Notes: generated from the sequence alone by a model not told the origin. Counted from the first letter of the stretch, positions 2,671 through 57,500 are shown. The stretch is 64,000 nucleotides of DNA from Mobula hypostoma (GCF_963921235.1 NC_086107.1:111974001-112038000); one strand, 5' to 3'. Program-made: numbers and translations.

Positions 2671-2689
2671 GCATTGTGTTTACGATTAA

Positions 2690-4360
2690 AGACGCCCATC
2701 TCCCTGGATATGCCCTCTTCTCATTGTTACCATCACAAAGGAGGTACAGAAGCCTGAAGGCACACACAACAATTCAGGGACAGTTTCTTCCCCTCTGCCA
2801 TCTGATTTCTGAATGGGCATTGAACCCATGGACACTACCTCACTATTTTTTTATTTCTATTTTTGCACTACTTATTTCATTTAACTATTTTATATATATA
2901 CACTGACCATCATTCACATTTTTCTCTATTATCATGTATTGCAATGTACTGCTGACATAAAGTTAACAAATTTCACAACATAGGCCTGTGATATTAAACT
3001 TGATTTTGACTCTGACCAACAAGAACCTCCACGTTATTTCGTATTTGGCATGAAGATCAGGAAATAAGTGTTCTAATTTGCATTAGCAACACTTCCTAAA
3101 GATTTACAGTGTCATAAAAATTCCAATGAGGTTGCAGTCATTACAAATGTTGAAATTTTCTCTTCCCATAGTGCTGACAATAATAATTCGATTTGACATT
3201 CAGGTATAAAGATCTTACACCTTAGGCACACATTCACATCCTGCCTCCACCACAGGGTTGTGTGTTTAGGTCCCTGCCCTACTCACTTTACACCTATGAT
3301 TGTGCGGCGAAGTACAGCTCCTACACCAGATACAAGTTTGCTAATGACACCACTGTTGTGGGCCGTATCAAAGGTGGTGATGAATCAGCAGACAGGAGGG
3401 AGATTGCAAATTTGGCTGAGTGGTGCCATAACAACAGAGGTCCATGAGCCAGTCTTCATCGGAGGTGGAGAGGGTCAGTAACTTTAAATTCTTGTGTGTC
3501 TCCTGTCCTGGACCCATTACATACTTGTAAATGTAATTGCAAAGAAAGCACAAAAGCCCCTCCACTTACCTTTTCAATGATCCAGATCACCTCAGGGATG
3601 TGCGTGTCCTGGTCATGTGTCCGTTTTGTGCTTGTGTTGAGAAACACACCATCTTTCTCAAAGGCTATCTGCAATGCAGAGGGATATAGAAGGGGAAAAA
3701 TTTTAAAAAACACAACTGAAGTGCGGTTGAGTGAAGGGCAGGAGTCCAATTAGATGTTCATACCATCCCGGGTGTTTAAATTTCCCAGTGTTATTATTTT
3801 CGGAGGACCTGTTCTGGGCCCAGCTTCTATAGATGTATGGTGGAAAACGTATTGATTGACTGCATTACGGCTTGGTGCATCAATGCCTTTGAATGGAAAA
3901 TCCTACAGAAAGTAGCGGATACAATACATAACGACCCAGTACATAAAGGGTAAAGTTCTCCCAACCACTGAGCTACATGAAACACTTTTACATTCTCCAC
4001 TGCATAAAATGCTGTTGTCACCATCCAGGCCAGGTTCTTTTCTCACAGCTGCAATCAGGCAAGAGATAGAAGAGCCTCAGGACCCACACCATCAGGTTTA
4101 ATAACAGTTAATACCCCTCAACCATCAGGCTCTTGAACAAAAGAGGATAATTACACTCACCTATTGAGATGTTCCTACGACCAATGACCTCACCAAGGAC
4201 TCTATCGTGTTGTTTCATGCTTTCGTTATTTGTTGCTATTTATTTATTTGTATTTGTACAGTTTGTTGTCTTCTATGCTCCTGCTCTTTCATTGATCCTG
4301 TTTACAGTTATATATATATATATATATACTCCTTCTGATAAGTTCCCTTTGAACTTTTGA
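2690..4360 (+). mobile_element. Cluster of degraded Rex1/Babar-like LINE fragments, interrupted by host sequence including the 3172-3203 micro-exon
   Basis: ORFs FSLLPSQRRYRSLKAHTT and LYTYDC...[12 protein letters not shown]; boundaries approximate. Confidence 0.6.
3172..3203 (+). CDS. Probable signal-peptide micro-exon ([11 protein letters not shown]), phase 1 to 0
   Basis: ttttctcttcccatag acceptor, CAG|gtataa donor, 32 nt, hydrophobic, phase fits the next micro-exon. Confidence 0.5.
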
Positions 4361-30564: not shown

Positions 30565-33500
30565 TCACACACAGACACCTTCCTCTGACAACAATGAGGG
30601 AGAGAGAGAGAGAGAGTGTCACACACAGACACCTTCCTCCGGCAACAGTTGCTCACCTTCCACACTCGCCTCAAAGTTTTCAATCTTCCTGGAAGCGAGA
30701 TCAGCAAGAAATGGAGTCGATCATGGCATAGCATCAGGTGAGCAGTATTCGCACGAGAAACATCTAAGTAAACGTTTTTTCCGCAAGAAAGGGGGCTAGG
30801 CCACTGCAGTTAGATAACGGCAGCAGCAGTTATGGGGTGAGTGGGGTCTTTTACGCGGATTGGCTCATCCCTTGTTTACCTGATAACATGTCCCAAACTC
30901 CTTCTAGTGGGATAACCATGTATTTTTTCATATTTACAGCCATTATCATTGGAGCGACTGTGGGCCCTCTGCTGGGTCTGATCCTAATTGGAGTATTACT
31001 GTTCTTCTATAGAGTCAGATTTCGGAGGTAAGAGGACTTACTCAGTGATGGTAATGAACGTGTACTGATGGAGATTTAAAGAAACTTGACGATGCCCAAA
31101 CCTTCTCACCACTGATAGCAACACTAACAGATGGAGAACTGCAATTGATATTGTTTCCTGACCCTGGAGGCCTGCCTCACTCAAGTTATGTTGACTTTTT
31201 CCTCTCTTCATTCCGGTGTAAAATGTTTGAAGTATTTTCTCTCCAGTTATTTTTAGAAGAGTATAAGAGAAAATACAAAAATCTGAGGAGCAAAGGGGCT
31301 TGGGAATCCTCATGCAGGATTACCTAAAGGTTAATTTGCAGTGTGAGTCTGTGGTGAGCAAGGCAAATGCAATGTTAGCATTAATTTCAAGAGGACTAGA
31401 ATATAAAAGCAAGGATGTAATGTTGAGACTTTATAAAGCACTGGCCTGACTTGGAATATTGTGAGCAGTTTTTGGCCCTTTGTCTTAGAATGGATGTGCT
31501 GAAACTGGAGAGGATTCAAAGGAGGTTCACAAAAATGATTCCAGGACTGAGTGGCTTGTCATATGAAGAGCATTTGATGGCTCTGGGTCTGTATTCATTA
31601 GAATTCATAAAAATGAGGGGTGATCTAATTGAAACCTATCAAATGGTGAAAGGCTTTGATGGAATGGATATGGAGAGGATGTTTCCTCTGGTGGGAGAGG
31701 CTAAGACCACAGGACACAGCAGCAGCATAGATACCCGTCCTTTTAGAAAGATGAGAAGGCATCTCTTTACCAGAGAGTGGTGAATCTGTGGAATTAGTTC
31801 CACAGGCAGCTGTGGAGGCCAAGTCTTTATGTATATTTAAGGCAAAGGTTGATAGGTACTTGATTGGTCAGAGCATGAAGGGTTATGGGGAGAAGGCAGG
31901 AGATTGGGATTGTGAGGGAAAATGGATCAGCTATGATGAGATGGCGAAGCAGACTCGATGGGCTAAATGGCCTAATTCTGCTCCTACATGTTATGGTCTG
32001 AGGGCCATGTACTTCAGCAACACTTTTTATTTGGACCTGCACCACATACTGATAATCCTACGCTCACTCACCTGTATCTTGGCTAAGTAGACCCTCAATT
32101 TTAGTAAAATTATTTTGTTTCTACATCCTGTCTTGGGCCCATCACTTCCTGTTTCTATAATCCCCTCCAGTCCCAGGATTGTTCAGGATCTGCACTCAGT
32201 GGCTACTTTATTCGGCACACCTGTACACATGCGCATTAATGCAAATATCTTATCAGCCAATCCTGTGGCAGCACTTCAGTGCATAAAAGCATGCAGACAT
32301 GGTCAAGAGGTTCAGTGGCTGGGCTGAAGGTCCAGCTGGAGACTGGCAGTTGGGGCTGTTGATTGAATGGGTGGGGTCTTGGGCATGGAGGAGCCTAGTA
32401 GTTTGGAAAGGGTTAGTTTGTGGCCTATGGCTGTAAAAGGGAGGGGAGGGGTTGAGATTGAAGGAGGAGGGCAGGAGACTGTGGAATACTCCAGAAGTAA
32501 GGGTAGCCAAAAAAGGGGTGTATCAAGTGGAAGACCCGAAGTAATGGGAGACAACAAATTGAAGAAAATGGGTGAATTGGAGGAATTTATAGTTCTGTAT
32601 AAAATTAAAGGTCAGAAGGAAGAGGAAGGAGGATTTAGAGCCCTTAATCCTTTGAAATTGTCAGCAGCATTAGAGAACCAAATAGGTAAAGGATTCCCGA
32701 CCAAGATTTTTTCTAATGGATTGCTGAAAATTTGTTGCAAAGATGTTGACCAATATAACAGTGCTAAAATGGTGGGAAAATTGGTTGTTAAAGTGGAGTG
32801 TATTACTCCATAAGGAAGGGAGTTAGGGGGGTAGTGTATGGTATTTGGTCTGGCATGACTGAAAAGGAAATTTTGGACAATATTAAAGGTGGTCGAGTGA
32901 TTGAAGCCAAACGATTAAAATCAAGAGAAGACGGTGATTGGGATTCTCCTGTTCTTCTGGTTTTTGCAGGTGATGTTCTTCCAACTAGAGTCTATCTTGG
33001 GTGCATGTCTTATCAAGTTAGAGAATACATTAGACCTTCCTTGTGCTGTTATAATTGCCAGAGATATGGACACGTTGCTGGTTCATGTCGAGGTAAAAGA
33101 AGATATATGAAATGTGGAGAGGATCATGATATTAAAGCATGTAAGGCAGCGGTGCCTAAATGCAGTAACTGTGGAGGGGACCATATAGCGGCATTCAGAG
33201 GATGTGAGCATTTTAGTAAGGCAAAGCAGATTCAGGATGTTAGTATCCAACAAAAAATATCATATGCTAAGGCAGTGAAGAAAGTTGATGGAGAGCAAAG
33301 GATAAGTAAAGAAAAAATTGGAATGATGGAGAGTCAGTACATTCTGAGTTCTCCAATTATGGTTCATTCAGGCATGTTGTTGACGACTAAAGAGTCTTTT
33401 TTGGCGTTTGTTGTTGATGTACTGGTTGGGGCCAAAACTACAACCAAGAGGTTGGATATAATAAAAGTAGTTGTTGGAGCTGCCGAGAGATTCCTTAATA

Positions 33501-36500: not shown

Positions 36501-39500
36501 GGAGTGCCAAAGTAAAATTAAAAGATGTCCATTTTTAGATTTGGTTAATAACTGGGCTGTGAAATTGAAACTGACTGAGGAAGACATAGTTGACCAAATT
36601 TGCTTGCCACCCGTCCCTTTTTGGCTCTTGCCGGAACCAGAAGTAGTCCTATTCCTCCTTTTTCAGCTTTAAGGAAGCAGAGCAATTTCATCAGCGTTCA
36701 TCACAAATGAATATTTAAATAATAAATGGGGATCTTATCTGAAGATTTTTACTGATGGCTCAGTGGACCCAGAGAGCAGTAGGCAGGGTTTGGGATGTAT
36801 ATGTCTCAACTTGGAGTTAAGTTTGGTCACCAGGTTTCAGAAGGTGTTTCTATCTTTGCAACAGAATTACTAGCAATCCTCTGGGCTTTATGGTAAATAG
36901 AAGACTCTCAACCATGTAGGGTTATCATCTGTTCAGATTCTGCCGCTGTCTTAGAGGCTATAAAAGGAATAAATCAAAAGCTCATCCTGAAATAGTTATT
37001 GAGATTCTCTTAGTGTTGTTTAGAGTAGGGAAGATGGGTTGTGCAGTTAGATTTTCATGGATACCTGGGCATGCTGGGGTGGAGGGAAATGAAATTGTGG
37101 ATGGCATTGCAAAGTTTTCCTTACAGAGCAGGCAAGTAGAAATTAGAGCTCCCCTAGGCAAAGCAGAATTGAGATGTAGGATTAAAAAAGGTATAGAGAA
37201 TAAGTGGCAGGAGGATTGGAAAAATGAATTAAGGGGCAGGCATTATTTTTCTAGTCACCCACTGGTTAAAAAGGTCTCAGACTGTTACCTTTCAAATCGT
37301 AGAGATCTGGAGAAATTAACAAGACTTAGGTTGGGGCATTGTGGGCTAAACTATTATTCAAAGATAATAGGAAAACATCCTACTGGATTATGTGACCGTG
37401 GTAGTCCAGAGACAGTCCAGCATGTTTTGCTGAGCTGTAATAGATACAAAATTGAAAGAAGCATGTTGTTCAAGAGGCTATCTGGCTTAAATGTACTTTG
37501 GTTTCCTATTAAATCTTTGTTTGCCCATCATGAGAACCAACATCTGATTGAAGAGTTTATTATTCAGTTTATACATGAGACTAGGTTATATTCGAGAATT
37601 TGAGTTCCTTGAAGTTCTATAATTACACATCCTGCAGAGGGCAGTAATCCGCCTAGATGCGTCTAAACCGCCGGAAATAGAAGAAGAAGAACTTCAGTTG
37701 TTGTTCAGACTGAACATCAGAGTGGGGAAGAAATGTGATCTAAGTGGCTTTGACCATGGAATGATTGCTGGTGTCAGATGGGGTAGTTTGAGAATCTCAA
37801 ACTGCTGATCCCCTGGGATTTTCAGTCTTTAGATTAGATTAGATTAGATTGAGGACACGCAGTCCTCTTTTATTATCATTTAGTAATGCATGCATTAAGA
37901 AATGATACAATGTTCTTCCAGAATGATATCACAGAAACACAAGACAAACCAAGACTAAAAAACTTACAAAGTTTGTACAAAAACCACATAATTATAACAT
38001 ATAGTTACAATAGTACAAAGCAATACCGTAATTTGATAGAAGAACAGACCATGGGCACGGTAAAAAAAAATCTCAAAGTCTCTCGAAAGTCCCATCATCT
38101 CACGCAGATGGTAGAAGGAAGAGAAACTCTCTTCCTGCCATGAGCTTCCAGCGCTGCAAACTTGCTGATGCAGCACCCTGGAAGCAGCCGACCACAGCCG
38201 ACTCTTGAGTCTGTCCAAAAATGTCAAGCCTCCGACCAGCCCTCCGACACCGAGCACCAAGCACCATCTCTGCCAAGCGCTTCGACCTCGGCCCCGGCAA
38301 CAGGCAAAGCCAAGGATTTGGGGCCTTCCCCTCCAGAGATTCTCGATCGCGCAGTAGCAGTGGCAGCAAAGCGGGCACTTCAGAAGTTTCTCCAGATGTT
38401 CCTTCGTGCTTCTCATGGCTGTCTCCATCAAATCAGGATTGTGCACGGCATCCTACTTACAAATACGATAGTGTACACAGGGAACGGTGTGAGAAACAAA
38501 AAGACATCCAGTGAGTGGTAGTTCTGTGGGTGAAAATGCCAGACGACAGAGAAAAATAGCCGGAATGGTTCAAGCTGACAGGAAGGCGACAGTAACTCAA
38601 ATAACAACATTACAACAGTGGTGTGCAGGAGAGCACCTCTGTGTGCACAACACATTGAACCTTGAAGAGGATGGGCTACAGCAGCAGAAGACAATGAACA
38701 TACACTCAGTGGCCATTCTATTAGGTACAGGGGGTAGCTAATAACATGGCCACTGAGCGTCTACACTCCCCTAAACTTATCATCCATGGATCAATCTACG
38801 CCTCAAATTCTGGTATTTCTTCCTAAAACTCTCTACCTCTGTTTTTCTTTAGTCCTATAGGACCCAATTTAATATACAGATCAACATCAATTTCTGTTGC
38901 AGAATGTCTTAAGAAATTTTAATATATTACAGTGATAGAAATTGACATTAACAAGTCATTTTTATCATTCCAGGATGAATCGTGAGTCAGAATTTTTATC
39001 AACGATTGCCCTTTCTTCAGCATACAAGTACGTGGATTTTTTTTGTGTTCTTGATGACTTGGGTTGTCTCCCTCCCCTACCTCCACCACTGTCTATGATA
39101 CTGCAGCTGCTGTCTCTCCATCAGTGCTGGCTGTACTCTGAATTACATTGGCCCCTCTCTCTAATTTAATAGCATCTTGCCTGAAGCCCTCCACTGTTCA
39201 GGGGCCGACCAAGGACATTGCTTTTTAGTCATTTACGTGATACGCAAGTCAGAGCGCAACTATGTGGAGAGCAAGCTGCTTCCCATGTAGCAGGCTCCCC
39301 CTCTCCACACAGCTGATGAATCCAGAGGAACGGCAGAGACTGATACATTCAGACACCAGTGGTATTGCAGGGGTTGCTGATCAGCATAGGACTGCCTTAG
39401 GGACTTTAGCTCTAGACTTTTCCTTGGGGTTTGCTCCCCATGAGTGGCTATAGCTGACAGGCAGAGGAGGTTTGAGATGAGTTTTCCTTCTAGATGAGCT

Positions 39501-42500
39501 GCCAACAATGGCTGATGAGTCCCATCTGCCCAAAGTGACTGGTGTTCAGGTGCCAGTAATCCTACTTTGCCCATTCTGCCAGTGTAAATGGTTCCCGCAG
39601 GCTTAGTAACTAAGCCGTGAGTTAGCTACGCCAGAGGCGATTTGAGATGCATACCATTGGGAACATTCAATAGTAGTAGGAGCTATTCGCCACTGCCTTC
39701 CCTGGCTATAACAACCTTACACAGCCACGCAGCTGGTAGCTTGCAGACTGATATTGCACCAAGCAGTGGTATAATGCCCAGTGATATGTGTGTACTATCT
39801 GACCTACTGAATTCCTCCAGCATTTTGTGTGTGTTGCTTTGGATTTCCAGCATCTGCAGAAATTCTTGAGTTCATGATTAAGGGATGAGTCACTGCAAAA
39901 CAGTACAACTGCCCTTGACAACAAGGCCAAAGGCCTTTTGATGGGAGCAAAGAAAGAATGCATGGTCTTGGTCTTTTGTTTCATTTGAAAGATGAGAGAG
40001 AAGGCTAAGACTCTTTTAATATTGCAGAACTTGCTCAAGGTAACACTGAAACATAAGCCTAGAGTTTCGTGTTAGGTTTGCATTGCAGAACCTAATGAGT
40101 CAGCACTAGCTGAGTTAGGGTGAACATCTGAATCAAGTAAAGTCACCTACACTTTGTTTTGCTCCCCAGGCCCATCCCCGTGAGTGAATACAAGAGCTAC
40201 GTGCTGTGCAACAAAAACATTGGCTTTTCTAGCGAATATCGGGTGTGTATGTTTCGTTGAAATATTCACTTCAAACTCCTGAGAACTTGCTTAACTAGAA
40301 AGTGCAGAGCATTGTCAAAGGCAGGTGATGAACACATTGTACAAGTGAATGAGAACTATGGTGGTCCTTGATGAAGTCCTGATGAAGGATCTCAGCCTGA
40401 AATGTCAACTGTTTACTCTTTTCCAGAGATGCTGCCTTACATGCTGAGTTCCTCCAGCATTTTGTGTGAGTTGCAGAGATTTCCAGCATCTGCAGATTTT
40501 GTCATCTAAGGACCATGGTGGGCAGGGACCCACCAGTGCATTACCAATGAATGCAAGTGCAGGTGTGCTGCCCAAGTACAGCCCTTCTCAATCTTTTTAG
40601 TACAAGATCATCCAAGCACTGAACTTCGTTTTGCAACCCCAAATCGATGTAGTCATCATGTCCTTGATTAGCTTCCAATGCAAGTTCAGGTTATATTACA
40701 ATAATATTGTATTACAGCTGGCTCAATAGCACTACAGTTAACATAACGCTTTACAGCACCAGCGGCCCGTTGTCTGTAACGAGATTGTACACTCTCCCCA
40801 CAACCGTGTGGGTGTCTTCCAGGTTTCCCGGTTTCCTTCCACATCCCATTTACATAGGTTAGTAGGTTAATTGGGCAAAGAAGGCTTGTTGGGCTGACAG
40901 GGTCTGTTACTGTGCTATATCTATAAATGAGCATCAAAAGATTGTTAAATAGCGAAACTCTTGCTGATGCTAAGTCCCTTGCTTGCCAATTGAACAGATC
41001 AATAATAATGGATACTCAAGTATCTTTTTCTTCTTCTTGGCCCCTTAGCTCCCAGTGGAGCATAGGCCATCGATGACTTCCTGTCTCCATTGAACTCTGA
41101 TCTGACCTAGTTGCTTGAGGGGGCACCTGGGGTGTCCCCGTTGTCTAATTTCGGCCTCGACGTCTCTCCTCCATGTCCTTTTTCCTTTTTCCTTGGGGAT
41201 TCCATTTTAATGCCTGCCGAGGGATGGTGCTGGTTGGCTTCCTCGAGATGTGGCCAATCCACTTCCACTTCTGTTTGTATCTCTATGGATTCCTGGTTGG
41301 TGTTTTCCCCACAGGGCCTGTCAGTCCATCTGATGTTTAGGATCCTTCTCGGGCACTGATTGATGAAAGCTTGAGGTGTTATTTTCCTGTCTGGTACATG
41401 GTTCCCACACAAAGCCCAAGACAGATAAATGAGCTTTGATGACAAAAGAGAAGTTGGCCATGCAGGATCCTGATGGCTTTCCCTGTGCTGTGCCATGTGC
41501 TCACTCGATGATAAAACCCTTCTCACAAAGTCGATAGTATGGTTGGAGTTCATCAATGTTTTTGTAACCATTGTATCCACTGTACAGGGGATTGGCCTAC
41601 AGAGCTTCACCAGAGCCCTGTTGGCCAGCCTCGCCTGTTTCCACCTCTCGAGACGGGATGTTGAGTTGGAATTTGAGAGGCACTCAAGTATCCTTCCACT
41701 CCACGTTTAATTTTTGCCTTTCCAAGATTGGGGAAGCACTTCCCAGGACATGTACCACCACTTCCGGATGTTCTCCTTCACCCTTGAGGATTCCTTGTAA
41801 TCGGTCCGTGACGTCCTGGATCCTGGCACCAGTGAGGCAACACATGATGATGTATCTGTGAAATTCATTGCCACAGGTGGCTGTGGAGGCCAAGTCATTT
41901 AAAGCGGAGGTTTATAGTGTTACATTTTGTAACTTCAAAACATTAAACTAATTTCAAGGAAGACACAAGAGTCTGGGAACATGGATCTAGCTTCATCTTT
42001 ACTTTTAACAAGGCGCGCACGGATCATGTGGTAGCGTGATGACTTATGTAATTATCATAGTTTTACATATAACCCATAATTAATTATTTAAACAAACAAG
42101 AAAGCTTAATTAACCTATATATATACTAGATCCCTCAAATATTACTTAAATATTAAATACCTAACATATAGGTTCTTGATTAGTCGAGGCATCAAAAGTC
42201 TCAGGAGAATGGGGTTGAGAGGGCTAATAAATCAACCATGATGGAATAAGCAGACTCAATGGGCTGAATGGACTAATTCTGCTCCTACATCTTGTAGTCT
42301 TAAAACTGAAAGTTCTGAAAGACTGCGATTACCTTTGTCAGTTGTCTAATCTGTGGATTGTGATGACTAAGGAGAGGGAGGTTGAATCCCTTTGGTTCCC
42401 CTATAGCTGAAAGTAATCAGGAATTACTTCCTTATTTTGTTACTGTTCCTCATTTAGACAATAGACAATAGACAATAGGTGCAGGAGTAGGCCATTCGGC

Positions 42501-45500
42501 CCTTCGAGCCAGCACCGCCATTCACTGTGATCATGGCTGATCATCCACTATCAGTATCCAGTTCCTGCCTTATCCCCATAACCTTTGATTCTGCTATCTT
42601 TAAGAGCTCTATCCGTCTCTTTCTTGAAAGCATCCAGAGACTTGGCCTCCACAGCCTTCTGGGGCAGAGCATTCCATATATCCACCACTCTCTGGGTGAA
42701 AAAGTTTTTCCTCAACTCCGTTCTAAATGGCCTACCCCTAAATTCTTAAACTGTGGCCTCTGGTTCTGGACTCACCCATCAGCGGGAACATGCTTCCTGC
42801 CTCCAGCGTGTCCAATCCCTTAATAATCTTATATGTCTCAATAAGATCCCCTCTCAGCCTTCTAAGTTCCAGAGTATACAAGCCCAGTCGCTCCAATCTT
42901 TCGATATATGACAGTCCCGCCATTCCAGGAATTAACCTTGTGAACCTACGCTGCACTCCCTCAATAGCAAGAATGTCCTTCCTCAAATTTGGAGACCAAA
43001 ACTGCACACAGTACTCCAGGTGTGGTCTCACCAGGGCCCTGTACAGCTGCAGAAGGACCTCTTTGCTCTTATACTCAATTCCCCTTGTTATGAAGGCCAG
43101 AATGCCATTAGCCTTTTTCACTGCCTGCTGTACTTGCATGCTTGCTTTCAGTGACTGATGTACAAGAACACCTAGATCTCGTTGTGCTTCCCCTTTTCCT
43201 AACTTGACTCCATTTAGATAGTAATCTGCCTTCCTATTCTTACCACCAAAGTGGATAACCTCACATTTATCCACATTAAACTGCATCTGCCATGCATCTG
43301 CCCACTCACCCAGCCTGTCCAAGTCACCCTGCATTCTCATAACATCCTCCTCACATTTCACACTGCCTCCCAGCTCTGTGTCATCGTAAATTTGCTAATG
43401 TTACTCTTAATTCCTTCATCTAAATCATTAATATATATTGTAAACAGCTGCGGTCCCAGCACTGAACCCTGTGGTACCCCACTGGTCACTGCCTGCCATT
43501 CCAAAAGAGACCCGTTAATCACTACTCTTTGTTTTCTGTCAGCCAGCCAATTTTCAATCCATGTCAGTACTCTGCCCCCAATACCATGTGCCCTAATTTT
43601 GCCCACTAATCTCCTCTGTGGGACTTTATCAAAGGCTTTCTGAAAGTCCAGGTACACTACATCCACTGGCTCTCCCTTGTCCATTTTCATAGTTACATCC
43701 TCAAAAAATTCCAGAAGATTAGTCAAGCACCATTTCCCCTTCGTAAACCCATGCTGACTCGGACCAATTCTGTTACTGCTATCCAGATGTGTTGTAATTT
43801 CATCTTTTATAATTGACTCCAGCATCTTTCCCACCACTGACGTCAGGCTAACCGGTCTATAATTCCCTGTTTTCTCTCTTCCTCCCTTCTTGAAGAGAGG
43901 GACAACATTAGCCACCCTCCAATCCACAGTAACTGATCCTGAATCTATAGAACATTGGAAAATGATTACCAATACGTCCACGATTTCTAAAGCCACTTCC
44001 TTAAGTACCCTGGGATGCAGAGCATCAGGTCCCGGGGACCTATCAGCCTTCAGACCCAACAGCCTATACAACACCATTTCCTGCCTAATATAAATTTCCT
44101 TCAATTCATCCATTACCCTAGGTTTTTTGGCCACTTACATCTGGGAGATTGTCTGTGTCTTCCCTAGTGAAGACAGATCCAAAGTACCTGTTCAACTCGT
44201 CTGCCATTTCCTTGTTCCCCATAATAAATTCACCCGCTTCTGTCTTCAAGGGCCCAATTTTGGTCTTAACTATTTTTTTCCTTTTCACATACCTAAAGAA
44301 GCTTTTACTATCCTCCTTTATATTCTTGGCTAGTTTACCTTCGTACCTAATTTTTTCTCTGCGTATTGCCTTTTTAGTTACCTTCTGTTGCTCTTTAAAA
44401 GTTTCCCAATCCTCTGGCTTCCCACTCGTCTTTGCTATGTTATACTTCTTCTCTTTTATTCTTATGCTGTCCATTACTTCCCTTGTCAGCCGCGGCCTCC
44501 CCTTACTCCCCTTAGGATCTTTCTTCCTCTTTGGAACGAACTGATCCTGCACCTTCCGCATTATTCCCAGAAACACTTGCCGTTGCTGTTCCACTGTCAT
44601 CCCTGCTAGGGTATTGTTCCATTGAACTTTGGCCAGCTCCTCCCTCATAGCACCATAGTTCGCTTTGTTCAACTGTAGTACTGACACTTCCGAGTTTCCC
44701 TTCTCCCTCTCAAATTGTAGATTAAAACTTATCATATTATGGTCACTATCTCCTGATGGCTCCTTTACCTAGAGGTCCCTGATCAAATCCAGTTCATTGC
44801 ACAACAGTAAATCTAGAATTGCGTTCTCTCTGGTAGGCTCCAGTACAAGCTGTTCTAAGGATCCATCTCGGAGGGACTCCACAAACTCCCTTTCTTGGGG
44901 TCCAGTACCAACCTGATTCCTCCAGTCTACCTGCATGATGAAGTTCCCCATAACAACTGTAGCATTACCTTTGCGACATGCAAATTTTAACTCTTGATTC
45001 AACTTACACCCTACATCCAGACTACTGTTTGGGGGCCTGTAGATAACTCCCATTAGGGTCTTTCTACCCTTAGAATTTCTCAGTTCTATCCACACTGACT
45101 CTACGTCTCCTTCCTATGTCCCCCCGCACAATGGACTGAATATCATTCTTCACCAACAGAGCCACCCCACCCCCTCTGCCCATCAGTCTGTCCTTTCGAT
45201 AGGACGTATACCCTTGAATATTTATTTCCCAGGCCCTGTCCACTTGAAGCCATGTCTCTGTTATTCCCACAACATCACACTTACCAATTTCCAACTGTGC
45301 CTCAAGCTCATCTACTTTATTTCTTATACTCCGTGCATTCATACATAATACTTTTAGTTCATAACTCCCCTCACCTCCCATATCAATTCCTATTTCACTT
45401 GGCCATACTGTACGATCCCTTCTTGAGCTTTCTGCTCTGTTGATTCTGCTGCCTTTCTTAACTTTTCTTATTCTCACTTTCCCTTTATCTCCATCCTTAT

Positions 45501-48500
45501 ATTTCCAGTTCGTCCCCTCCCCCCCACTACTTAGTTTAAGCACACCCGCGTTGCAGAGGCAAACCTGTGCCAGAATGCTGGTGCCCCGCTTATTAAGGTG
45601 CAACCCGTCCCTTTTGTACAATTCATCCTTACCCCGAAACATACCCCAGTGGTCCAAGAATGTAAATCCTTGATTCCTGCACCAGTTCCTCAGCCACACA
45701 TTCAGATCCATTATCTCCCTGTTCTTGACCACTCCAGCACGAGGAACTGGAAGCAAACCGGAGATAACCACCCTGGAAGTCCTGCTTTTCAGCCTTCTTC
45801 CGAGTTCTCTGAAGTCGCGCTGTAGAATGTCTTTCCTCTTCTTTCCCACGTCATTTGTGCGACATGCACCACCACTTCCGGATGTTCTCCTTCACCCTTG
45901 AGGATTCCTTGTAATCGGTCCGTGACGTCCTGGATCCTGGCACCAGTGAGGCAACACACCATCCTTAAATCCCGCCTGTTGCCGCAGAAACCCCTTTCTG
46001 TACCCCTCACTATGGAGTCCCCTACTACCACGGCTCTGCCTGACTTCTGTCTCCTTGGGTTTGCCTCAGCGCCAATTGTTGATTCACAGAGCCGTCCACC
46101 TCTCAGACTGGCAGTGTCTTCTGTCCCGACAGCTTCCAAGAGGGAGAACCTGTTTACGAGAGGCACATCTCCTGGGGTCTCCTGTATTTCAAGCATCCTT
46201 TCCTTGCTCATCGTCGTCCTCCTACTCTCTTCCTGTATCCTGGGTGTAACGACCTCACTGTAGGTCCTGTCCAGAAAACTCTCGTTGTCCCGGATTAACC
46301 TAACGTCATCCAGTTGCCTCTCCAGTGCTGCAACACGGTCCTTCAGAAGCTGAATCTGGACACATTTTCTGCAGGTGTGGGATCCAGAGGCACCATCAGT
46401 GTTCCAGACCTCCCACATCATGCACACAGCACACTGAATCAGCCTAGCGATCATCTCTTCTCCACTTCTCACCCTCTCCGACTGTGAGGGCAACATTTAT
46501 TACTCGTTTTTACTCTCCCATGAGAAGGTATCAAGGAAAAAGAAACTCGAGAATTAGTCATGAGGGTGTGGAATCGGGTCACACGTTTGTCAGATTAGAT
46601 AAGGCTGGCAGATTTTTTCCTTCCTTCCTTGTTTCATATCGGGGTGTCAGGATCCAAAGTGAGAGCTGATTTCGCTCGCTCTCCGTGATGGTCACTCCTC
46701 TCTCCATGGCGCTGAGGCTATGAAGACTCCCCTGTCTGCTGTGCTCTGTGCCCACTAACATGATGAGCTGGTAAGCGAGGTTTTGGGCCTACTCCAGGCT
46801 GCTCTGGGTTTGAACCTGAGGACTCAATTTGGTTCGGAATGCAAACAAGAGAAAATCTGCAGATACTGGAAATCCGAGCAACATAGACAAAATGCTGGAG
46901 GAATTTACCATTTCCCATCCCCTTGTCCCTCTATCATGTTATCTCTTTGCCCACCCATCTCCTCCCTTTGGTGTTCCTGCACCCACCCCTCGGCTTTCTT
47001 CTTTCTTCCATGGCCTTCTGTCTCTTTCACCAATAAACTTCCCAGCTCTTTGCTTCATCCCTCTCCCTCCAAGTTTCACCTATCACCTGGTGTGTCTCTC
47101 TCTCCCCTCCCCCCCCCCCAGCTTTCAGATCTTCTATCTCAGCCCGAAACGTCGACTGTACTTTTTCCCAGAGATGCTGCCTGGCCCGCTGAGTTCCTCC
47201 AGCGCTTTGTATGTGTTGCTTGGTTCGGAATGCTGTTGTCCGCTTGAAATGTTAGCATGGTTTGTGTCTTTTTCTTTCTCTTGTTCATCGGGTGTTGGTC
47301 TTTTATTTTTATTCTTTTTTTTCTTTAATTGGGTTCCTTTGGGTTTCTTTGAGAGCAAGCAAATCTCAAGGTTGTATACAATCTTTGATGATAACGTACT
47401 CTGAATATATATATCAATCAAAGTTCAAAGTACATTTGTTATCAAATTATACAACCTTGAGATTTGTCTGCTTACAAGCAGCCACAAAGCAGGAAACCCG
47501 CAAGAACCCAATTTTAAAAAAGACAACACCCAATGCGCAGAGAAAGAGAGGAAGAAAACACGAACCATGCAAACGATAAAAGCAATTAACAGCTTTCAAA
47601 ATGAAATTGAGTCCGTGAACCTGAACCCCGGCGAAGCCGGAATAGGCCCACAGATTCGGTCTCAGTTCGTCATATAGCGGGGCAAATCGCCATGAAGCTC
47701 GCAGTCACGAAGTACGTAGTAACCGGAGCAGTCTCACAGCCTCAGCGCCGAGGAGAGCAGTGTAAAACGTCGCAGAGCAGAACCGGCTAAATGTATAGTT
47801 CGATTAAGCATTCTTGTTCATTTAAGTAATTAATTACAGGTTATGAGTATAAATATGTGAATTGCATACCTCATCATGCTACCTCGTGATATGTGCACGC
47901 CTCACTTAAAGTAAACCTAAAGTTAGACCCGCATTTCAGACTCCTGTGTCTGTCTCTGAATTAGTTTAATGTTTTGGAATTACAGGCCATAGCTAGAGCA
48001 CCCAGAGGAAACAGTGCGTTGTCAGAGGAAGATGTGCGAACTTTACTCAGACAGCATCTGAGGTCAGGCTCAAGCAGGTCACTGGAGCTGAGAAGCAGCA
48101 GCTGCAACCGCTGTGCCACTCATAAAGGATTAGCATGACCCGATGGGAACTTGCAGTGAACTGGAAACCGGTCAGCAGCACAGATGCTAACTTTCCTTAA
48201 TTCCCTGTTCTTTAACTGTTTAAAAGTACCAACTTCAATCGAGTCAGAGTCATATATCACTACATCACAGAAACAGGCCCTTTGGCCCATCTAATCCAAG
48301 CCGAACTGTTGTTCTGCCTAATCCCATTGACGCCTCTACCTGGGCCATAGTCCTCTAATCCATGTTAGGATGTGAACTGTCATCTCTAGGTCTCAATTTC
48401 TCTTGCCCTCACACTCCCAGTTCAGCTCCAAGAATCAAGCATCCCAGGTGCTGGAGGTCTGAACTAAAACAGAAAGTGATGGAAATATTGAACAGACCAA

Positions 48501-51500
48501 GCAACTGCAGAGGGAGAAGGAGTGAATTTTTCTGGTCAAACGCATTTGATCAGACGAAGCCTTAGATAAGGCACTGGTCAGACCGCACTTGGAGTATTGT
48601 GAGCAGTTTTGGGCACCTTACCTAAAAAACGATGTACTGGCAATGGAGAGGGTCCAGAGGAGGTACATGAGAATAATCCCGGGAATGAAAGGGTTAATGT
48701 ATGAGGAGCATTTGATGGCTTTGGGCCTGTGCTTGCTGGAGTTAAGAAGAATGGGGGGGGGGGGTATCTCATTGAAAGCTATCGAATATTGAAAGGTAAA
48801 CAAGAGAAAATCTGCAGATGCTGAAAATCCAAGCAACACACACAAAATGCTGGAGGAACTCAGCAGGCCAGGCAGTGTCTGTGGAAAAGAGTACAGTCGA
48901 TGTTATGGGTCGAGACCCTTCATTAGGATCTGTTGAACGGTCTCGGCCTGAAACATCAGCTATACTCTTTTCCACAAATGCTGCCTGGCCTGCTGAGCTC
49001 CAGAATTTTGTGAAAATTGAAAGGCCTAGAGAGTGGAGCAATAATTTAAGACTCGTATCACGTAGAAGTTTGGAAAAACAAGAAATTAAATGTCCAACTA
49101 CAATTAGCCAGCATTGATGGAATCCGGTTGCCCTGATACCGTTTCTCCATGACTGCAATGTCCTGGTGAAACCTTTCACCATGCTTGTCACTGACTGCAC
49201 CAAGATTTGCAGGGAAGAAGTCTAAATGGGAGTGCAGAAAATGAATCTTTAGTGACATGTTGTATTTCATGGTATTGTGTGTTTGAAGCATGTTGTCAAC
49301 CAGCTGCACGTAGTTTGGTGCTCTGTAGTTGCCAAGAAAATTTTCAACAACATCCTTGAATGCCTTCCATGTGATTTTCACTGGTCCCACTAGAAGTTCC
49401 TCAAATTGCCTGTCATTGCTGACTTGTTTGATTTGTAGACCAATAAAAATGCCTTCCTTAATCATGATAATCTGTTACTCTGGGAAACATCTGTCTCAAA
49501 TATCAAAAACCTTAATGGAAGTTTATATCCTTTCTGAATCCTGTCCTGCCATGCAGCATCTGCCCTGCCTAAGCATGTCTGAACAAGATAGAAAACTTTT
49601 CAGCTTACATTGTACAACATTTTAATTTACTTGAATGAGGAATTGAAATAACAAAGAGATGATTTTTTTTTTAAAAAGGCATGCGATAGGAAAATTTTAG
49701 GATGATTTTCATGATCAGCAGTCCAAAATCCGAAAGATACACCCAAACGTTATTCAGGAAGCAAAACCTTTGTTATCCATTGTAATAGGGTTGAAATTCA
49801 AAGGAATATATTCGTTCCTTTATTAAGCAACGAGCAAAACAAACTTGAAGTGATAAAACTAATGAACTAAAACTAATGATATAAAAAATAAACAGGTTTA
49901 ACATAATAAACGTACTTCAGCTTTCTTCAATGTAATTGAACTCTTTTAAGCCACATTAAGCGTAATTAACAGGTCAACAAAAAATCTATCATACCCGGCG
50001 GTCTCTACCTCTAACTGTCTCTAACCAAACTCAGACTGAACTAAAAACAAAGCATGCAGAGGTAACCAACACCCTCTTCGCTTTTACCACACACCCCCAC
50101 CCATGTGACTATCTACCATTATGAACGTACAACGCAAAATACAATGTATATAGAAAACAGATGTGGCTCCTACACGGACAATTCATAAACTCATAGGACC
50201 TACCATCTGAAATGTTAATTCTTTCTCTTCTCTGGCACCATCCAGTGTCAGTAAGTTCCCATGTGTCGTTGCAAGCACAAAACATTAAATGGCGATAAGA
50301 TAGAGACAGCTGACAGCTAGAACAGCAGTACCTGGTTAGTTACTGCTCATTACGTCTTGCTGGCACTTAGGGAAGTAATGAAGTTCCTCCATCTCTGCCC
50401 ATGGCCGTATGCTATCACATATAGATAAAGAAGGATTCTGTAACAATCTGTTTTTGACCAGCCAGGGTTCTTAGCCCTGGAACACTCTTAGCCTGGCCTC
50501 TACCCTCTGACCTGTTTGGCATGGGCGACCCTACCAAGAGACAAAGCATAAAGCCCAGACTCCAGCCAACATGGTTCTCCAGGTCATTGGGGCACACAAG
50601 CTTCCAAATCACGATAGGGTCGTGGTCCTCTTAGAGGAGGAGTATCTGGTCACACCCCACAAAAAGCCAGCACATCTGCCCTCACCCCATCATCCCACCT
50701 TCATAACAGGGATAGGGTTCCCCCTTGTCTTCTCCTACCACCCCCACGAGTCTCCATAATGTCCACCATCTTCAACAGGATCCTATCACAAAGGCACATC
50801 TTTCCCTCCCCTGTCACCTCTCTGTTTTCCGAAGAGATTGCTCTTTGCATGATTTCCTCATCCCTTCCCACTGATCTCCCTCCTGGCAATTATTCCTGCA
50901 AGCGTAACGAGTGCTACACCTCCTCTCTTGCCGTTCAGTCCTTCTGGTTTAGGCAACACTTCACCTGCGAGTCTGTCGGGGACCTCTATTGCTCTCAGTG
51001 TGCCTTCCTCTGCAAAGGTGAGACCCAACACAGAATAGGGACTACCTCATCGGGCATCTTTTAATCTTAGGGAATCTTAACATCTTCCAGCTATCTCCTT
51101 CCAGTCTCATTCCCTCTCCATCACCTACTCTATTTCCCCCTCACCTGATTTCACCTATGACCTGCTATCTTGTAACCCTCTCACCCCCCGCCCTTTATTC
51201 TGGCTTCTTCCCCCTTCCTTTCCAATGATGAAGGATCTCAGCCCGGAACATCAGCTGTTTATTCCTCTTCATAGATGATAACTGACCTGCTGAGTTCCTC
51301 CAGTGTTTTGTGTGAGCTGCTCAAGATTTCCAGCATCTGCAAAATCTCTTGTGTTTTTGCCTGCTACAAGATCATATTGAGAGGAAACTATACCCATAAA
51401 CTTAGCCTCACACTTAGATGCCCAAAAGTAATGTATCAGCTCTGCTTTAGTGTCTTAGGATGAATGAATGGAGGCTTTACTGGGAGGTCTTTCGGTTTTA

Positions 51501-54500
51501 GTTGAGAAGACTCTACCAGACCCCATCTTTTTACTCCAACCCTTCTCCTCCCACCTCCAGCCAGGAGGGCATCTCACACCTCAGGATTTTCTTTTACTTC
51601 TGTTGGCTTCTCTTCAGGGTTCTCCTTCTGGTTCCTTGTAGGGTTACAATCGCAAAAAGGCATTCATTGCTACACAGGGACCCCTGCCGGATACAGTGGT
51701 AGACTTCTGGCAAATGATTTGGGAGCAGAAGTCAGAGGTCATTGTGATGCTGACCAAATGTGTGGAGCACAATCAGGTGAGTCCCTAGTTTTTATTTATT
51801 CTACGTTATTTGGAGATACATCGTGGAAAAAACCCTTCCAATCATTCAAGCTGTGCTGCCCAGCATCCCCAACAACCACCAATCTAACCCTAACTTAATC
51901 ATGGGTCAATTTACAATGACCAATTAACCTACCTGCTATGTCTTTGGACAGTGGGAGGTAACTGGAGCACCTGGAGGAAACATCATGAATTGCATGAGGA
52001 GGGCATACAGAGACTCCTTACAGAGGACATCAGAATTGAACTCACCACTCCGATGCCCATGCCATTAATAGCACTGTGCATCATCTACTCTTCAGTAAGG
52101 TCTTCTAATATACAGTAACAAACTACAACGAATTCACAGCAAATCAAATTATATGCACATTTATTATTTGCAAGGGAAGGTCTACCTCCATTAAGTCATT
52201 GGAAAGTAGCTTCAATCTTCTCGCTCAAAACAAACCATTTTTTTTTTACTTTTACAGAGACCATAATTCATCACTTTCATATCTTTGAGGTTGTTCCATT
52301 TCATAATGGCATTCCCTCCCCATTGGCATCTGTGGCATCAGTTCTTTAATCCATAGAAACGATAGAAAAACTACAGCACAGAAACAGGCCTTTTGGCCCT
52401 TCTTGGCTGTGCCGAACCATTTTCTGCCTAGTCCCACTGACCTGCACATGGACCATATCCCTGGTCCATGTGCAGGTCCATACACCTCCCATCCATGTAT
52501 CTGTCCAATTTATTCTTAATAGAAACCATAGACATCTTTAAGCTGTCGTGGGAGGGGGCACTTCTTCCCCCCTGCTCCCCCATGACAGCTGTGTCGTGTC
52601 TTTCTCTGTTATCAAAATACTCCCTGCTATAAACTCACCCCTACTATAAAACCCACAGACTTCCATTCAAATCAGGAGCCTCTTTGAGAGGGTGTGTGTA
52701 CGAAGAACATCTCCACAGCCCATTATGTCATAGTGTTCAGGGCAACAATGAAGGTCCTCCATCTCTGATGGTGTTCAGGGCTTCCTTCATCATGTCAGTA
52801 GCTCAGTTTTCACTACTATCAGTCATGCAAGTCCTGGGTGGAGACTCAGCAATACAATCACACTCAGATGTGAAAGGAATACCCATTGCTGTTTCCTTAA
52901 CAGTTTTTTGGACCAGTCAGAGTTGTTAACCCAGAGCTGAACCTCCGAACCTGGAGGACCAGTGGACCAGTCTTAGTCTGGCCTCTATCCTTTGACCTGT
53001 TTGACATGGGTGACCCTACCATGAGCCAAAGCATAAAGCCCTGACTCTAGCCAACATAGCTCTCCAGGTCACTGAGGCATACAAGCCTCCAAAGCAGGAA
53101 AAGACGTGGTCCTCTTGGAGGTTATAAATCTGTGGCAGTACATAATTCCAGAATTGAACCTACGTCCCCACAGCAGTATGTAGTAAACTGGTGATGCGTT
53201 AGCTGAACAGGTTGGGTAGCTTGTGTACAATTCTTGGCTTGATGGATCGAGCAGCCTGATTCTGCTGCTTTGCCTTATTAAACCATGAGCTTTCCAGATC
53301 TGTTTCACTTTTTTCATTTTGTTGTGGGAAATCAGGTTCATGGGTTCAGTGAGTGGGAACAGGAGAGACCCGTTACCAGTAAACACACACAAAATGCTGG
53401 AAAAGCTCAACAGGTCAGGCAGTATCTATGGAAAAGAGTAAACAGTCGACGTTCGGGTTGAGACCCTTCATCAGGGCTGAGAAGGAGGGGCGATGACGGT
53501 AGAATAAAAAAAGTGTGGGGAGGCAAAAGAGGCTAGCTGGAAGGTGATAAGTGAAGGCAAGTGGTTGGGAAAGGTCAAGGGCTGGAGAAGGAAGAATCTG
53601 ATAGGAGAGGAGAGTGGAAAATAGGAGAAAGATTTCCAGAAAGCAGGTTAACTATTTATTTACAAGACAAGACAGACACTAAACAGTTAGTAAACCCTTC
53701 AAGCAAACTCAGTTACAAATACTTATCTAAACTGAGTGTCCAAAGGATCAGGACAAAGCAAACGTGAAACATACACACAGTGTCAAATGTCTATCTAATG
53801 TGTGTACTCGGGCCCTTTGCACTGCAGCTCGCCTCCCTCCCCCCACTGTCTACCGTATCCATGGCAACCTAATCTAACTGCTCCACTATGACCCAAGAGG
53901 AAAAGAGAACGCGTGCTAGATCTAAACCCTAGCGGCTTTGTGACGTCATTAGTAAAGAAGCTAGTGGGAGGGGCTGCAATGCTTCTTACACGAGCCAATT
54001 CCTGCCTCCCACGGGGGAGTGGGTAAGTTAAGACACGTACTGCAACACATGCCCAATATTAATCTGTGATGACGCAAACATATAATATCAGAGAATTGGT
54101 ATATCGGACAACTGCTGATACCCAGTGTGGTCCAAACTCAAAGCAGCCATCAGGGGATATGCAGTGGGGATGCAACTCTTACTTTATATAATTTTGCATG
54201 TTATATTACCTATCCATACTTTAACCTCTAACTTCATATTTTATATTATTCTTTACTCTTTAAAATTGTTAAATGTTATTGCTTTTTTGTTGCATGTCGC
54301 ACCCCAACCAACACACCACAGAAATTCATAACTCATGTCATGGAAATAAAGTTGATCCTTGAAACTTGATTTACCTGCATCTCTCTACTTCACCAAAATC
54401 AGGGATGAGATATCATGTTCCTCTGAAGCTTTTCCTTCCCTTAGTTGCTTCAGTATCCAGCAAAATGGTGAGGGGCAGACTGAGGCAAATCTTTCCCATC

Positions 54501-57500
54501 CAGAGAACTTAATGTTGAATGGCATCTAGAACATGCCTGCTCAGAGTCTGGTGGTTGTCTTGTCGTGTCTAATGATGACAGGAGACCTGTGCGGAAAAGT
54601 TTTAGAAGTGGAAATGCCATTGCATTGGGACAGTTCCACTCCCTTGACCTCAGAAGTCCGGGTCCAGTCCCACCACCCAAAACATGCCCGCTTCACACTG
54701 TTACTGTCGGGAAGGATGTACAGAAACCTGAAGGCACACACTCAGTGATTCAGGAACAGCTTCCTCCTCCTCTGCCATCTGATTTTTAAATGGACATTGA
54801 ACCCACCTTACTACTTTTATATTTCTGCTTTTTCTTGCACTACTTATTTTAACTTAACTAATATAACTAATATATAACTAATGTAACTCAGTTTATTCTC
54901 TATTAAATTTATCATGTATTTCATTGTACTGCTGCCGTAAAGTTAACAAATTTCACAACATTTGTCAGTGATATTAAACTTGATTCTAATTGTGAAGAGT
55001 AGTTAGGAGACGTTTGACCCTGGAATCTTCCAACTTGGAGGCCAGAGTGAAACTACTTGGTTGCGTTTAGTACCGTGGCTCACTGGGAAGAGGATTGCAA
55101 AGCCAGCTCCTAGTCCGATTAGTCCCCTAATCATTCTTTTAACTGTTTTGTTTCCAGGACAAATGCGAAGAATACTGGCCAAAGGATAACGACACTGACA
55201 TCTACGGAGACTTCACAGTGAATGTCATTTCACTAAGCCGCTGCCCTACTTGGACAATCAGGGAACTTAATATCAAAAAGGTGAAGAGTTATTTACAAAG
55301 AGACCACCATGGAGAACTAGCTGATTGCTGACTGAGACTTTATAAGGCATTCCAAACAGGAGAAAGTCTACAGATGCAGGAGGTCAAAGTAACACGCACA
55401 AAAAGCTAGAGGAACTCGGCAAACCTGGCAGCATCTATGGAAAAGAGTAAACAGTTGACATTTTGGGCTGAGACCCTTCATCAGGACTGGACTTTTTTCC
55501 AGCCCTGATGAAGGGTCTCGGTCTGAAACGTCAACTGTTTACTCTTTTCCATAGATGCTGCCTGGCCTGCTGAGTTCCTCCAGCATTTTCTGTGTGTTAC
55601 TTTAAGGCATTGGTCAGACTGCACTTGGAGTATTGTGAGCTACTTTGAGCCCCTTACCTAAGGAAGGAACGTGCTGGAGAGGAACCAAAGGAGGTTCAGG
55701 GGAATGATCTTGGAAATGAAAAGGAATCATTCTGGGAATGAAGAGCATTTGATGGGCCTGGACCTGCAATTACTGGAATTTAGAATGAGGGGGGATCTCA
55801 TTGAAACCTATCGGATATTGAAAGGCCTAGAAAGAGTGGACATGGACAAGATGTTCCTTCAGTGGGGGAATCTAGGACCAGAGGGCACAGCCTCAGTACA
55901 GAAGGTCGTCCCTTTGGAACGGAGATGAGGAAGAACTGCTTCAGCCAGAGGTTAGTGAATCTGTGGAATCCATTGCTACAGGTGGCCGTGAAGGCCAAGT
56001 CACTTAAAGTGGGGGTTAATAGGTTCTTGATTAGTCAGGGTGTCAAAGGTTATGGGAAGAAGGCAGGAGAATAGGGTTAAAAGAGATAATAAATTAGCCA
56101 TGATGGAATGGCAGAGCCATTATGGATGGGCTGAATGGCCTAATTCTGCTCCTATGTCACAGAGTCACAAGAGTGATAGAAAAGTACATCAAACGAACAG
56201 GCCCTTCGTCACGTCTAGTCCATGCCAAACCATTTAACCTGCCTACTCCCATCAACCTGCGCCAGGACCATAGCCCTCCATATCCCTACAATTCAGGTAC
56301 CTATCCAAACTTCTCTGAAGCATTGAAATCGAGCTCGCGTGGACCATTTGCACTGGCAGCTCATTCTGCACTCTCATGACTCTCTGAGTGAAGAAGTTTC
56401 CCTTTGCGCTCCCCCTAAAGGTTTCACCACTCTTAACCCACGAGCTCGAGTTGTAGTCCCATCCAAGCTCAGTTGAAAAAGCCTGCTTGTGTTTAACCTA
56501 TCTATACCCGTCATAATTTTGGATACCTCTATTAAATCTCATCTCCATCTTAGTAACATAGAAACATAGAAAATAGGTGCAGGAGTAGGCCATTCGGTCC
56601 TTCGAGCCTGCACCGCCATTTATTATGATCATGGCTGATCATCCAACTCAGAACCCCGCCCCAGCCTTCCCTCCATACCCCCTGACCCCCGTAGCCACAA
56701 GGGCCATATCTAACTCCCTCTTAAATATAGCCAATGAACTGGTCTCAACTGTTTCCTGTGGCAGAGAATTCCACAGATTCACCACTCTCTGTGTGAAGAA
56801 GTTTTTCCTCACCTCGGTCCTAAAAGGTTTCCCCTTTATCCTCAAACTGTGACCCCTCGTTCTGGACTTCCCCAACATCGGGGATTTTATACGTTTCAAT
56901 CAGATCCCCCCTCAATCTTCTAAATTCCAACAAGTACAAGCCCAGTTCATCCAGTCTTTCTTCATATGAAAGTCCTGCCATCCCAGAAATCAATCTGGTG
57001 AACCTTCTTTGTACTCCCTCTATGGCAAGGATGTCTTTCCTCAGATTAGGGGACCAAAACTGCACACAATACTCCAGGTGTGGTCTCACCAAGGCCTTGT
57101 ACAACTGCAGTAGTACCTCCCTGCTCCTGTACTCGAATCCTCTCGCTATAAATGCCAGCATACCATTCGCCTTTTTCACCGCCTGCTGTACCTGCATGCC
57201 CACTTTCAATGACTGGTGTATAATGACACCCAGGTCTCGTTGCACCTCCCCTTTTCCTAATCGGCCACCATTCAGATAACAATCTGTTTTCCTATTTTTG
57301 CCACCAAAGTCGATAACTTCACATTTATCCACATTAAATTGCATCTGCCATGAATTTGCCCACTCACTCAACCTATCCAAGTCACTCTGCATCTTCTTAG
57401 CATCCTCCTCACAGCTAACACTGCCACCCAGCTTCGTGTCATCCGCAAACTTGGAGATGCTGCATTTAATTCCCTCATCCAAGTCATTAATATATATTGT

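Follow-up and report, generated by a model that had tools for sequence, protein, structure and literature searches.

Receptor tyrosine phosphatases of the R3 subtype, such as PTPRH (SAP-1) and PTPRJ (DEP-1), have in common an ectodomain of FN3 repeats, one membrane helix, a single cytoplasmic protein tyrosine phosphatase (PTP) domain and, at the C terminus, a YxN tail. This tail is described as a phosphorylation site that binds Src-family kinases, and the aspartate of the catalytic WPD loop as conserved in all vertebrate R3 members surveyed except PTPRQ (PMC5336234). Specificity for phosphotyrosine is set by the KNRY loop (motif 1), the tyrosine of which stacks on the ring of the substrate and fixes the depth of the pocket (PMC7320164; PMC2638020). 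Receptors in which this machinery no longer works have been described. According to the account of the PTPRU D1 pseudophosphatase (Hay et al., 2020; PMC7320164), its recognition loop forms no pocket and its WPD loop is altered, and the domain is inactive and binds substrates; PTPRU is there a conserved R2B receptor with tandem domains that has kept the loop residues, in disordered form, and an intact fold.

Here we examine a small PTPRH-like, R3-type receptor gene on the plus strand of a 64,000-nucleotide stretch (hereafter the window) of the genome of the devil ray Mobula hypostoma (GCF_963921235.1 NC_086107.1:111974001-112038000). An earlier reading of the window from its sequence alone (the sequence-only reading), which rightly took the KNRY loop to govern phosphotyrosine specificity, had suggested that two exons of the PTP domain were missing and that skipping them keeps the frame. 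In comparison with PTPRH and PTPRJ, the devil-ray protein is without motifs 1-3 (KNRY, RVxL and DYINA), and its WPD aspartate is replaced (WSN). Unlike PTPRU, where the loop residues persist, the devil-ray gene has physically lost the loop and two strands, and has done so in one species only. Its manta and stingray orthologs (XP_072129080.1, P0127 and P0126) have 4-5 FN3 domains and the same degenerate WPD, P- and Q-loops but keep the 56 residues in question, and the domain of the manta ortholog finds its structural matches in the PTPRJ, PTPRB and PTPRH domains of the PDB (E 1e-75 to 1e-89). A large paralogue in the same genome, unlike the small one, has canonical catalytic motifs throughout. 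We consider it likely that the two exons were lost by genomic deletion in the devil-ray lineage, with loss of phosphatase activity and damage to the PTP-like domain.

The locus offers a clean natural case of two exons deleted in frame, and with them the part by which a classical PTP domain recognises its substrate; the event is dated to between two rays of one genus that are about 1.9% apart. Together, the active large paralogue, the ortholog without the general acid and the form without both acid and pocket make up a natural series with which to probe what a receptor pseudophosphatase domain still serves. In annotation, XP_062919469.1 and XP_062919471.1, the 'PTPRH-like' models of M. hypostoma, ought not to pass for active phosphatases. 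Otherwise this is an ordinary lineage-specific gene lesion, of kinds already known (lineage-specific exon deletion, receptor pseudophosphatase). We found no paper on the small PTPRH-like gene, and the main text of the preprint on the mobulid genomes, its supplements aside, contains neither 'PTPR' nor 'phosphatase'.

Absence of Two Exons and the In-Frame Join

Translated, the exon at 51642-51776 is 100% identical to part of a 754-amino-acid protein of the manta Mobula birostris named 'receptor-type tyrosine-protein phosphatase H-like' (P0006), and the FN3 exon at 19240, used as a query, recovers identically named M. hypostoma proteins. The RefSeq cluster of M. hypostoma comprises three isoforms, all in frame and without a low-quality flag: X1 (P0129, 698 amino acids), X2 (P0125, 653 amino acids) and X3 (P0130, 629 amino acids). 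Because P0129 maps on the window in 11 exons at 100% identity, with AG/GT borders throughout and without a stop or frameshift, the window is the M. hypostoma locus of the small PTPRH-like gene.

Within this gene, the wedge exon closes on ...GFSSEYR in phase 0 at a canonical donor (TAT CGG followed by gtgtgt), and the following recognisable exon opens, again in phase 0, behind a canonical acceptor (ttgtag before GGT TAC), just as had been described. The in-frame loss from the catalytic domain that these borders had led the sequence-only reading to predict is already present in the RefSeq gene models. Isoform X1 has the exact join, with EYR running directly into GYNRKK; isoform X2 runs from EYR into DKCEEY, so that the exon at 51642-51776 is skipped too, likewise in frame. 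The preprint on the mobulid assemblies gives RNA-seq from the project and protein alignments as the evidence behind the RefSeq annotation. At the join, the manta protein carries residues 470-525 (SLEEVG...KNRY...RVKL...DYINASYMP), and the difference in length between the two proteins (754 - 698 = 56) is exactly that of this segment, which spans PTP motifs 1-3; the earlier figure of roughly 55 amino acids was right as to an in-frame loss and one short in length.

That such genes encode the segment in two exons at this position was confirmed in the same genome. The large PTPRH-like paralogue (P0121, P0131 and P0132; 1,606-1,708 amino acids) lies directly upstream in tandem on the same chromosome (C45:111879055-111949434, or 111.879-111.949 Mb), and its version of the segment, 85 kb upstream, is divided between an exon of 91 nucleotides (SLANIG...NIFP plus one base) and one of 77 nucleotides (...DAARVKL...NYINASYMP), in phases 0/1/0. 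Either exon lost alone would break the frame, and only their joint loss (168 nucleotides) preserves it.

No splice-bounded segment encoding KNRY or DYINA had been seen between the two flanking exons, and four kinds of search agree. Regular expressions for the motifs (KNR[YF], [DN][YF][IV][ND]A and similar) gave zero matches in the six frames of 40243-51641. A tBLASTn comparison, a kind of check that had been proposed, was run on the entire window with the 754-amino-acid manta ortholog as query (word size 2, E<=10); it left residues 470-525 unmatched and found all other exons at 84-100% identity. Smith-Waterman alignment of the 56-residue segment in six frames reached a top score of 41, which is at chance level, in an open reading frame (ORF) of a long interspersed nuclear element (LINE). 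A profile hidden Markov model (HMM) of 56 columns built from eight homologs gave, against the 3,884 stop-to-stop peptides of the window, a best match of 7.9 bits (E 0.64), situated outside the interval on the minus strand at 12922-12978; put through the same procedure as a positive control, the neighbouring exon of 45 amino acids was found at 51642 with 105.9 bits (E 1e-31). In the whole assembly (3.48 Gb in 200 contigs), the 56 residues have 12 matches, none of them near-identical. The best, at 48-49% identity, lie in other receptor PTP genes, and the tandem large paralogue matches with its two exons at 53% and 75%. With no near-identical copy on any of the 200 contigs, the exons are not merely misplaced. 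Among M. hypostoma proteins of 414-1,320 amino acids, none with a close version of the segment was found; the large paralogue of this species has its own, different one.

The interval itself had been called nearly all transposon. Most depth bins are indeed at repeat level, and a broken LINE lies inside, but at least some 2.3 kb is single-copy: in the DNA run X1 of organism A, the organism of the window, the single-copy pieces are 40243-40404, 40450-41058, 47922-48287, 49702-50546 and 51330-51641. A first look with the reverse transcriptase piece of the LINE yielded 5,518 candidates in the assembly, and the 40 that were scored comprise the element itself at 100% and 39 others at 95-97% identity, by which the family is abundant and fairly young. 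With relatives this similar, and itself broken into at least 7 pieces, the intronic copy dates to near or before the species split, and it therefore decides nothing on the cause of the deletion.

Probable Age and Lineage of the Loss

Contigs of four coded runs were aligned to 38900-55400, among them X1 and the run X5, which is DNA of organism B. The X1 contigs are 100% identical to the window on its single-copy parts, both exon-intron borders included (39839-40404 and 51330-51924), with the exception of 49702-50546, where five letters differ. The X5 contigs are collinear on the single-copy pieces (38900-39294, 39839-40391, 40451-41069, 47922-48287, 49712-50396, 51330-51782, 53957-54357 and 54958-55400), with 75 differences in 3,915 bases (1.9%). 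At position 38976 the window has T and organism B has C, a change from methionine to threonine, and threonine is the residue of the manta protein. This substitution and the collinearity of X5 place the gene of the manta protein at the orthologous locus.

The 56-residue segment is kept in the manta (P0006), in Hemitrygon (P0127) and in Hypanus (P0126), with 83-100% mutual identity. In its cytoplasmic part, the devil-ray protein is 98% identical to that of the manta and about 79% to those of the stingrays. We infer that devil ray and manta parted very recently and that the loss arose, or still segregates, on the side of the devil ray.

In organism B, the contig covering 40451-41069 continues with 63 letters that do not resemble the window (41059-41132), next to the low-coordinate edge of the intronic LINE. 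This may be a structural difference between the species or a breakpoint, seen in one short contig beside a repeat.

Consequences for the Encoded Protein

The devil-ray product keeps the architecture of an R3 receptor around an incomplete catalytic domain. Its ectodomain consists of FN3 repeats only (four Pfam fn3 stretches, E 1e-44), and one transmembrane helix is modelled at residues 397-425. A single stretch at residues 469-664 matches the Pfam family Y_phosphatase (PF00102), and it covers profile positions 36-233 of 234, as against 1-233 in the manta protein. The loop that recognises phosphotyrosine (KNRY, motif 1) is missing from P0129 and from both window and assembly. In the C-terminal tail (...HTYPNDTGHFYESI...), the exons of which lie outside the window, the YxN motif is present and both YPN and YESI are kept.

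Rays carry two PTPRH-like genes in tandem, and the motifs that remain in the small one are degenerate when set beside the large paralogue (1,514-1,708 amino acids). Its WPD loop reads WPDHGVP, whereas the small paralogue has WSNQSIP in both Mobula species and WPNQSVP or WPNQNVP in the stingrays, such that the general-acid aspartate is lost from all four rays examined (WPN or WSN). As this aspartate is missing in mobulids and stingrays alike, the general acid was lost before their split. In the P-loop, VHCSAGVGRTG of the large paralogue corresponds to VHCSSGSGRTG; the HCX5R signature of the small form (VVHCSSGSGRTG) retains the nucleophilic cysteine and the arginine, two positions off the canonical AGVG. 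The Q-loop is QTESQY in the large and QSEALY in the small paralogue. Judged by these residues, the deletion probably struck a PTP domain that was already a weak enzyme or a pseudophosphatase, and mobulids and stingrays appear to share, in the small PTPRH-like paralogue, a conserved R3-type receptor that probably lacks normal catalysis. The two paralogues are about 56-60% identical in their cytoplasmic parts. Between Mobula and Hemitrygon, this part is 91.1% identical in the large paralogue and 81.6% in the small; the small one evolves here about twice as fast.

The residues that the devil ray lacks form, in the manta protein as modelled by AlphaFold2, the end of a helix (465-469), two further short helices (476-483 and 486-489) and two strands (504-506 and 518-524). 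The model of the devil-ray protein has a predicted local distance difference test score (pLDDT) below 50 across the join (465-477) and a mean of about 76 over what is left of the PTP part, compared with about 83 in the manta (means computed from 10-residue blocks). AlphaFold2 tends to redraw the fold of a family despite deletions, and these figures are a weak sign of destabilisation only; the PTP-like domain is most likely destabilised. With pocket wall and general acid gone, the protein is almost certainly no tyrosine phosphatase, and the gene most likely makes an enzyme-dead receptor or is beginning to decay.

The course of events can be pictured as follows. The deletion would have taken two adjacent exons that, by analogy with the paralogue, measured 91 and 77 nucleotides (56 codons) and encoded the end of the N-terminal helices, the KNRY loop and the strands bearing RVxL and DYINA. 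With the flanking exons in phase 0 and the lost exons summing to 168 nucleotides, the spliceosome would join 40242 to 51642 in frame. Four FN3 domains and the membrane helix would remain in the product, as would the Cys-X5-Arg loop and the YxN tail; the wall of the phosphotyrosine pocket would be gone, and so would the WPD aspartate (WSN), the latter as in the manta and stingray orthologs. The gene would then either persist for functions of its ectodomain and tail or stand at the first step of pseudogenisation.

On the run X9, which is presumed to be RNA, depth is 313.5 on the juxtamembrane exon and 4-9 on its 100%-identical intron contigs (the X1 DNA run has 16.1 on the same exon), and the gene is presumed on this ground to be transcribed. 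The retained PTP parts of the two Mobula proteins differ at six positions, of which three are derived in the devil ray, none in the manta, and three are unpolarised; in FN3 domains 2-4, the polarised differences number five in the devil ray and four in the manta.

Weighing the Alternatives

Several observations weigh against a deletion that abolished and damaged the catalytic domain. AlphaFold2 still draws the remaining PTP fold, if at lower confidence, and the rest of the gene is wholly intact, with no premature stop, frameshift or broken splice site in any of its 11 exons in the window. Neither the junction between 40242 and 51642 nor loose ends containing the exons were seen among the listed joints of the four runs' contigs over 38900-55400, where joints derived from repeats took up the tables (beyond those listed lie 7,509 further joints and 16,295 loose ends), and the runs X9 and X16 are RNA by guess only, not by record. 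The first FN3 exon is only about 60% identical between the two Mobula proteins, and orthology is therefore not one-to-one over the whole model. At about 1% divergence per branch, the polarised counts are too few for a test of relaxed constraint. Finally, the preprint describes the assembly as a haploid representation: a heterozygous or individual-specific deletion, or loss in assembly, is conceivable, and the short contigs cannot bridge 11.4 kb. One rival explanation is accordingly that the species, or its other haplotype, does have the two exons and that they were dropped or collapsed in a repeat-rich intron. The intron does hold a LINE family of thousands of copies at 95-97% identity, the haploid assembly offers just one version of it, and X1 unitigs are about 16 deep left of 48287 but about 11-12 deep right of 49702. 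Yet the window contains no N, none of the 200 contigs has the exons in near-identical form, both exon-intron borders are matched at 100% by DNA contigs from the same organism, and three in-frame isoforms without a low-quality flag stand on what the preprint gives as RNA-seq and protein evidence; an artefact of assembly or sampling seems very unlikely to us. The idea that the exons persist but have diverged past recognition, or sit elsewhere in the gene, can be practically discounted. Its best candidate is the minus-strand HMM match of 7.9 bits, whole window and whole assembly were negative, and at 1.9% neutral divergence even unconstrained exons would remain about 98% identical; the control exon scored 105.9 bits.

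A more serious rival accepts the truncation and takes the protein for a maintained non-catalytic receptor, the outcome of a process that turned a PTPRH paralogue by stages into a scaffold or decoy acting through its FN3 ectodomain and YxN site. The gene is apparently transcribed, its remaining exons and splice sites are all intact, and the acid was lost long ago, yet manta and stingray cytoplasmic parts are still 81.6% identical, from which a non-catalytic role would predate the deletion. The tail keeps YPN and YESI, and the YxN tail of R3 receptors is reported to bind Src-family kinases (PMC5336234); pseudophosphatase receptors that bind substrates, such as PTPRU, are known (PMC7320164). However, the deletion reaches beyond a loop and takes core strands, an annotated isoform omits the next PTP exon as well, all three polarised changes in the PTP part fall on the devil-ray lineage, and the event is too young, at 1.9% divergence, for intactness to prove selection. 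We regard a maintained receptor as unlikely, although clearly less so than an artefact. In its boldest form, the idea becomes a stepwise myliobatiform route to a non-enzymatic R3 receptor, in which the acid went first (WPN or WSN, common to stingrays and mobulids) and the pocket wall later in the devil-ray lineage. The truncated form would still be expressed, under selection as a scaffold of ectodomain and YxN tail or as a decoy for the neighbouring active PTPRH-like receptor, which it resembles in its FN3 repeats. We hold this scenario to be rather doubtful. A novel receptor and a decaying paralogue are inseparable on these data, and we incline to the view that the PTP domain is dead or decaying. 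Returning to the preferred explanation, a genomic deletion with loss of function, we infer from the comparisons above that the exons went by deletion after the split from the manta, that activity and stability were lost with them, and that the present selective state is as described.

Gene Structure and Surroundings

The features placed in the window are collected in Table 1. The first 18 codons and the last two coding exons of the RefSeq models lie outside it. The two terminal exons are at C45:112042087 and C45:112051757, 4 and 14 kb past the window, as tblastn matches only. The first coding exon (MNPFNRHQLLLLTLILTW, 18 codons) is absent from the window, which has just a 60% look-alike at 12143-12199, overlapping the region of exon 2; as the first coding exon is not in 1-12172, exon 2 must be separated from the promoter, upstream of it, by more than 12 kb.

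Table 1. Exons and other elements of the small PTPRH-like locus, in window coordinates.
Feature	Position	Strand	Basis or remark
Second coding exon, end of signal peptide (EVICSQSST)	12173..12200	+	Exact to P0129 residues 19-27; AG acceptor, GT donor
FN3 exon, intact, not used by RefSeq models	13950..14228	+	tblastn 52-63% to P0006 FN3 repeats
FN3 exon, first FN3 of RefSeq models	19244..19522	+	Exact to P0129 residues 29-120; canonical splice sites
FN3 exon	21216..21494	+	Exact to P0129 residues 122-213
FN3 exon	22961..23239	+	Exact to P0129 residues 215-306
Membrane-proximal FN3 exon	24319..24591	+	Exact to P0129 residues 307-397
Transmembrane exon	30940..31027	+	Exact to P0129 residues 399-427; identical to P0006
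Juxtamembrane exon	38974..39027	+	Placed by P0129 mapping; holds the Met/Thr difference at 38976 between the Mobula proteins
Wedge exon ending ...GFSSEYR, phase 0	40170..40242	+	P0129 mapping; X1 DNA contig 100% identical over 39839-40404
Intron, 11,399 bp, where relatives have two exons (56 codons: KNRY, RVxL, DYINA)	40243..51641	+	No trace of the exons by searches
Broken LINE: reverse transcriptase 43358-44134, endonuclease and GDSL esterase 45070-45891	41107..46496	-	ORF split into at least 7 pieces
Exon starting GYNRKKAF and ending CVEHNQ, PTP motifs 4-6, phase 0 at both ends	51642..51776	+	X1 DNA contig 100% over 51330-51924
Exon DKCEEYWP..., motif 7, phase 0 at both ends	55158..55280	+	P0129 mapping
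Exon with degenerate WPD loop and start of P-loop (VVHC)	63321..63478	+	P0129 mapping

Most of the gene is flanked by inverted LINE copies at 8304-9545 and 56558-57761, which are 96-98% identical to one another (over 880 and 325 nucleotides) and related to the intronic LINE at 76-81%.

From its sequence, the FN3 array of the small PTPRH-like gene appears to be undergoing remodelling. Nothing in the window closely matches the first FN3 of the manta protein (62% at most). The FN3 exon at 13950-14228 has an open frame, goes unused by all three M. hypostoma RefSeq isoforms and belongs to the direct-repeat family D1; by eye, it resembles the first FN3 of the Hemitrygon ortholog, to which it appears homologous. 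Further along, 18644-19899 and 21033-22791 are intragenic segmental duplications, each an FN3 exon with flanking intron, at 81-93% identity (families D3, D5, D8 and D9). The FN3 exons of the large paralogue are related to the window exon at 19240 (81%) and have the same phases, and in that gene near-identical FN3 exons follow one another at a spacing of about 2.3 kb. Five of these score alike (78% to the query, 132.6 bits), a sign that its exon array may have expanded recently.

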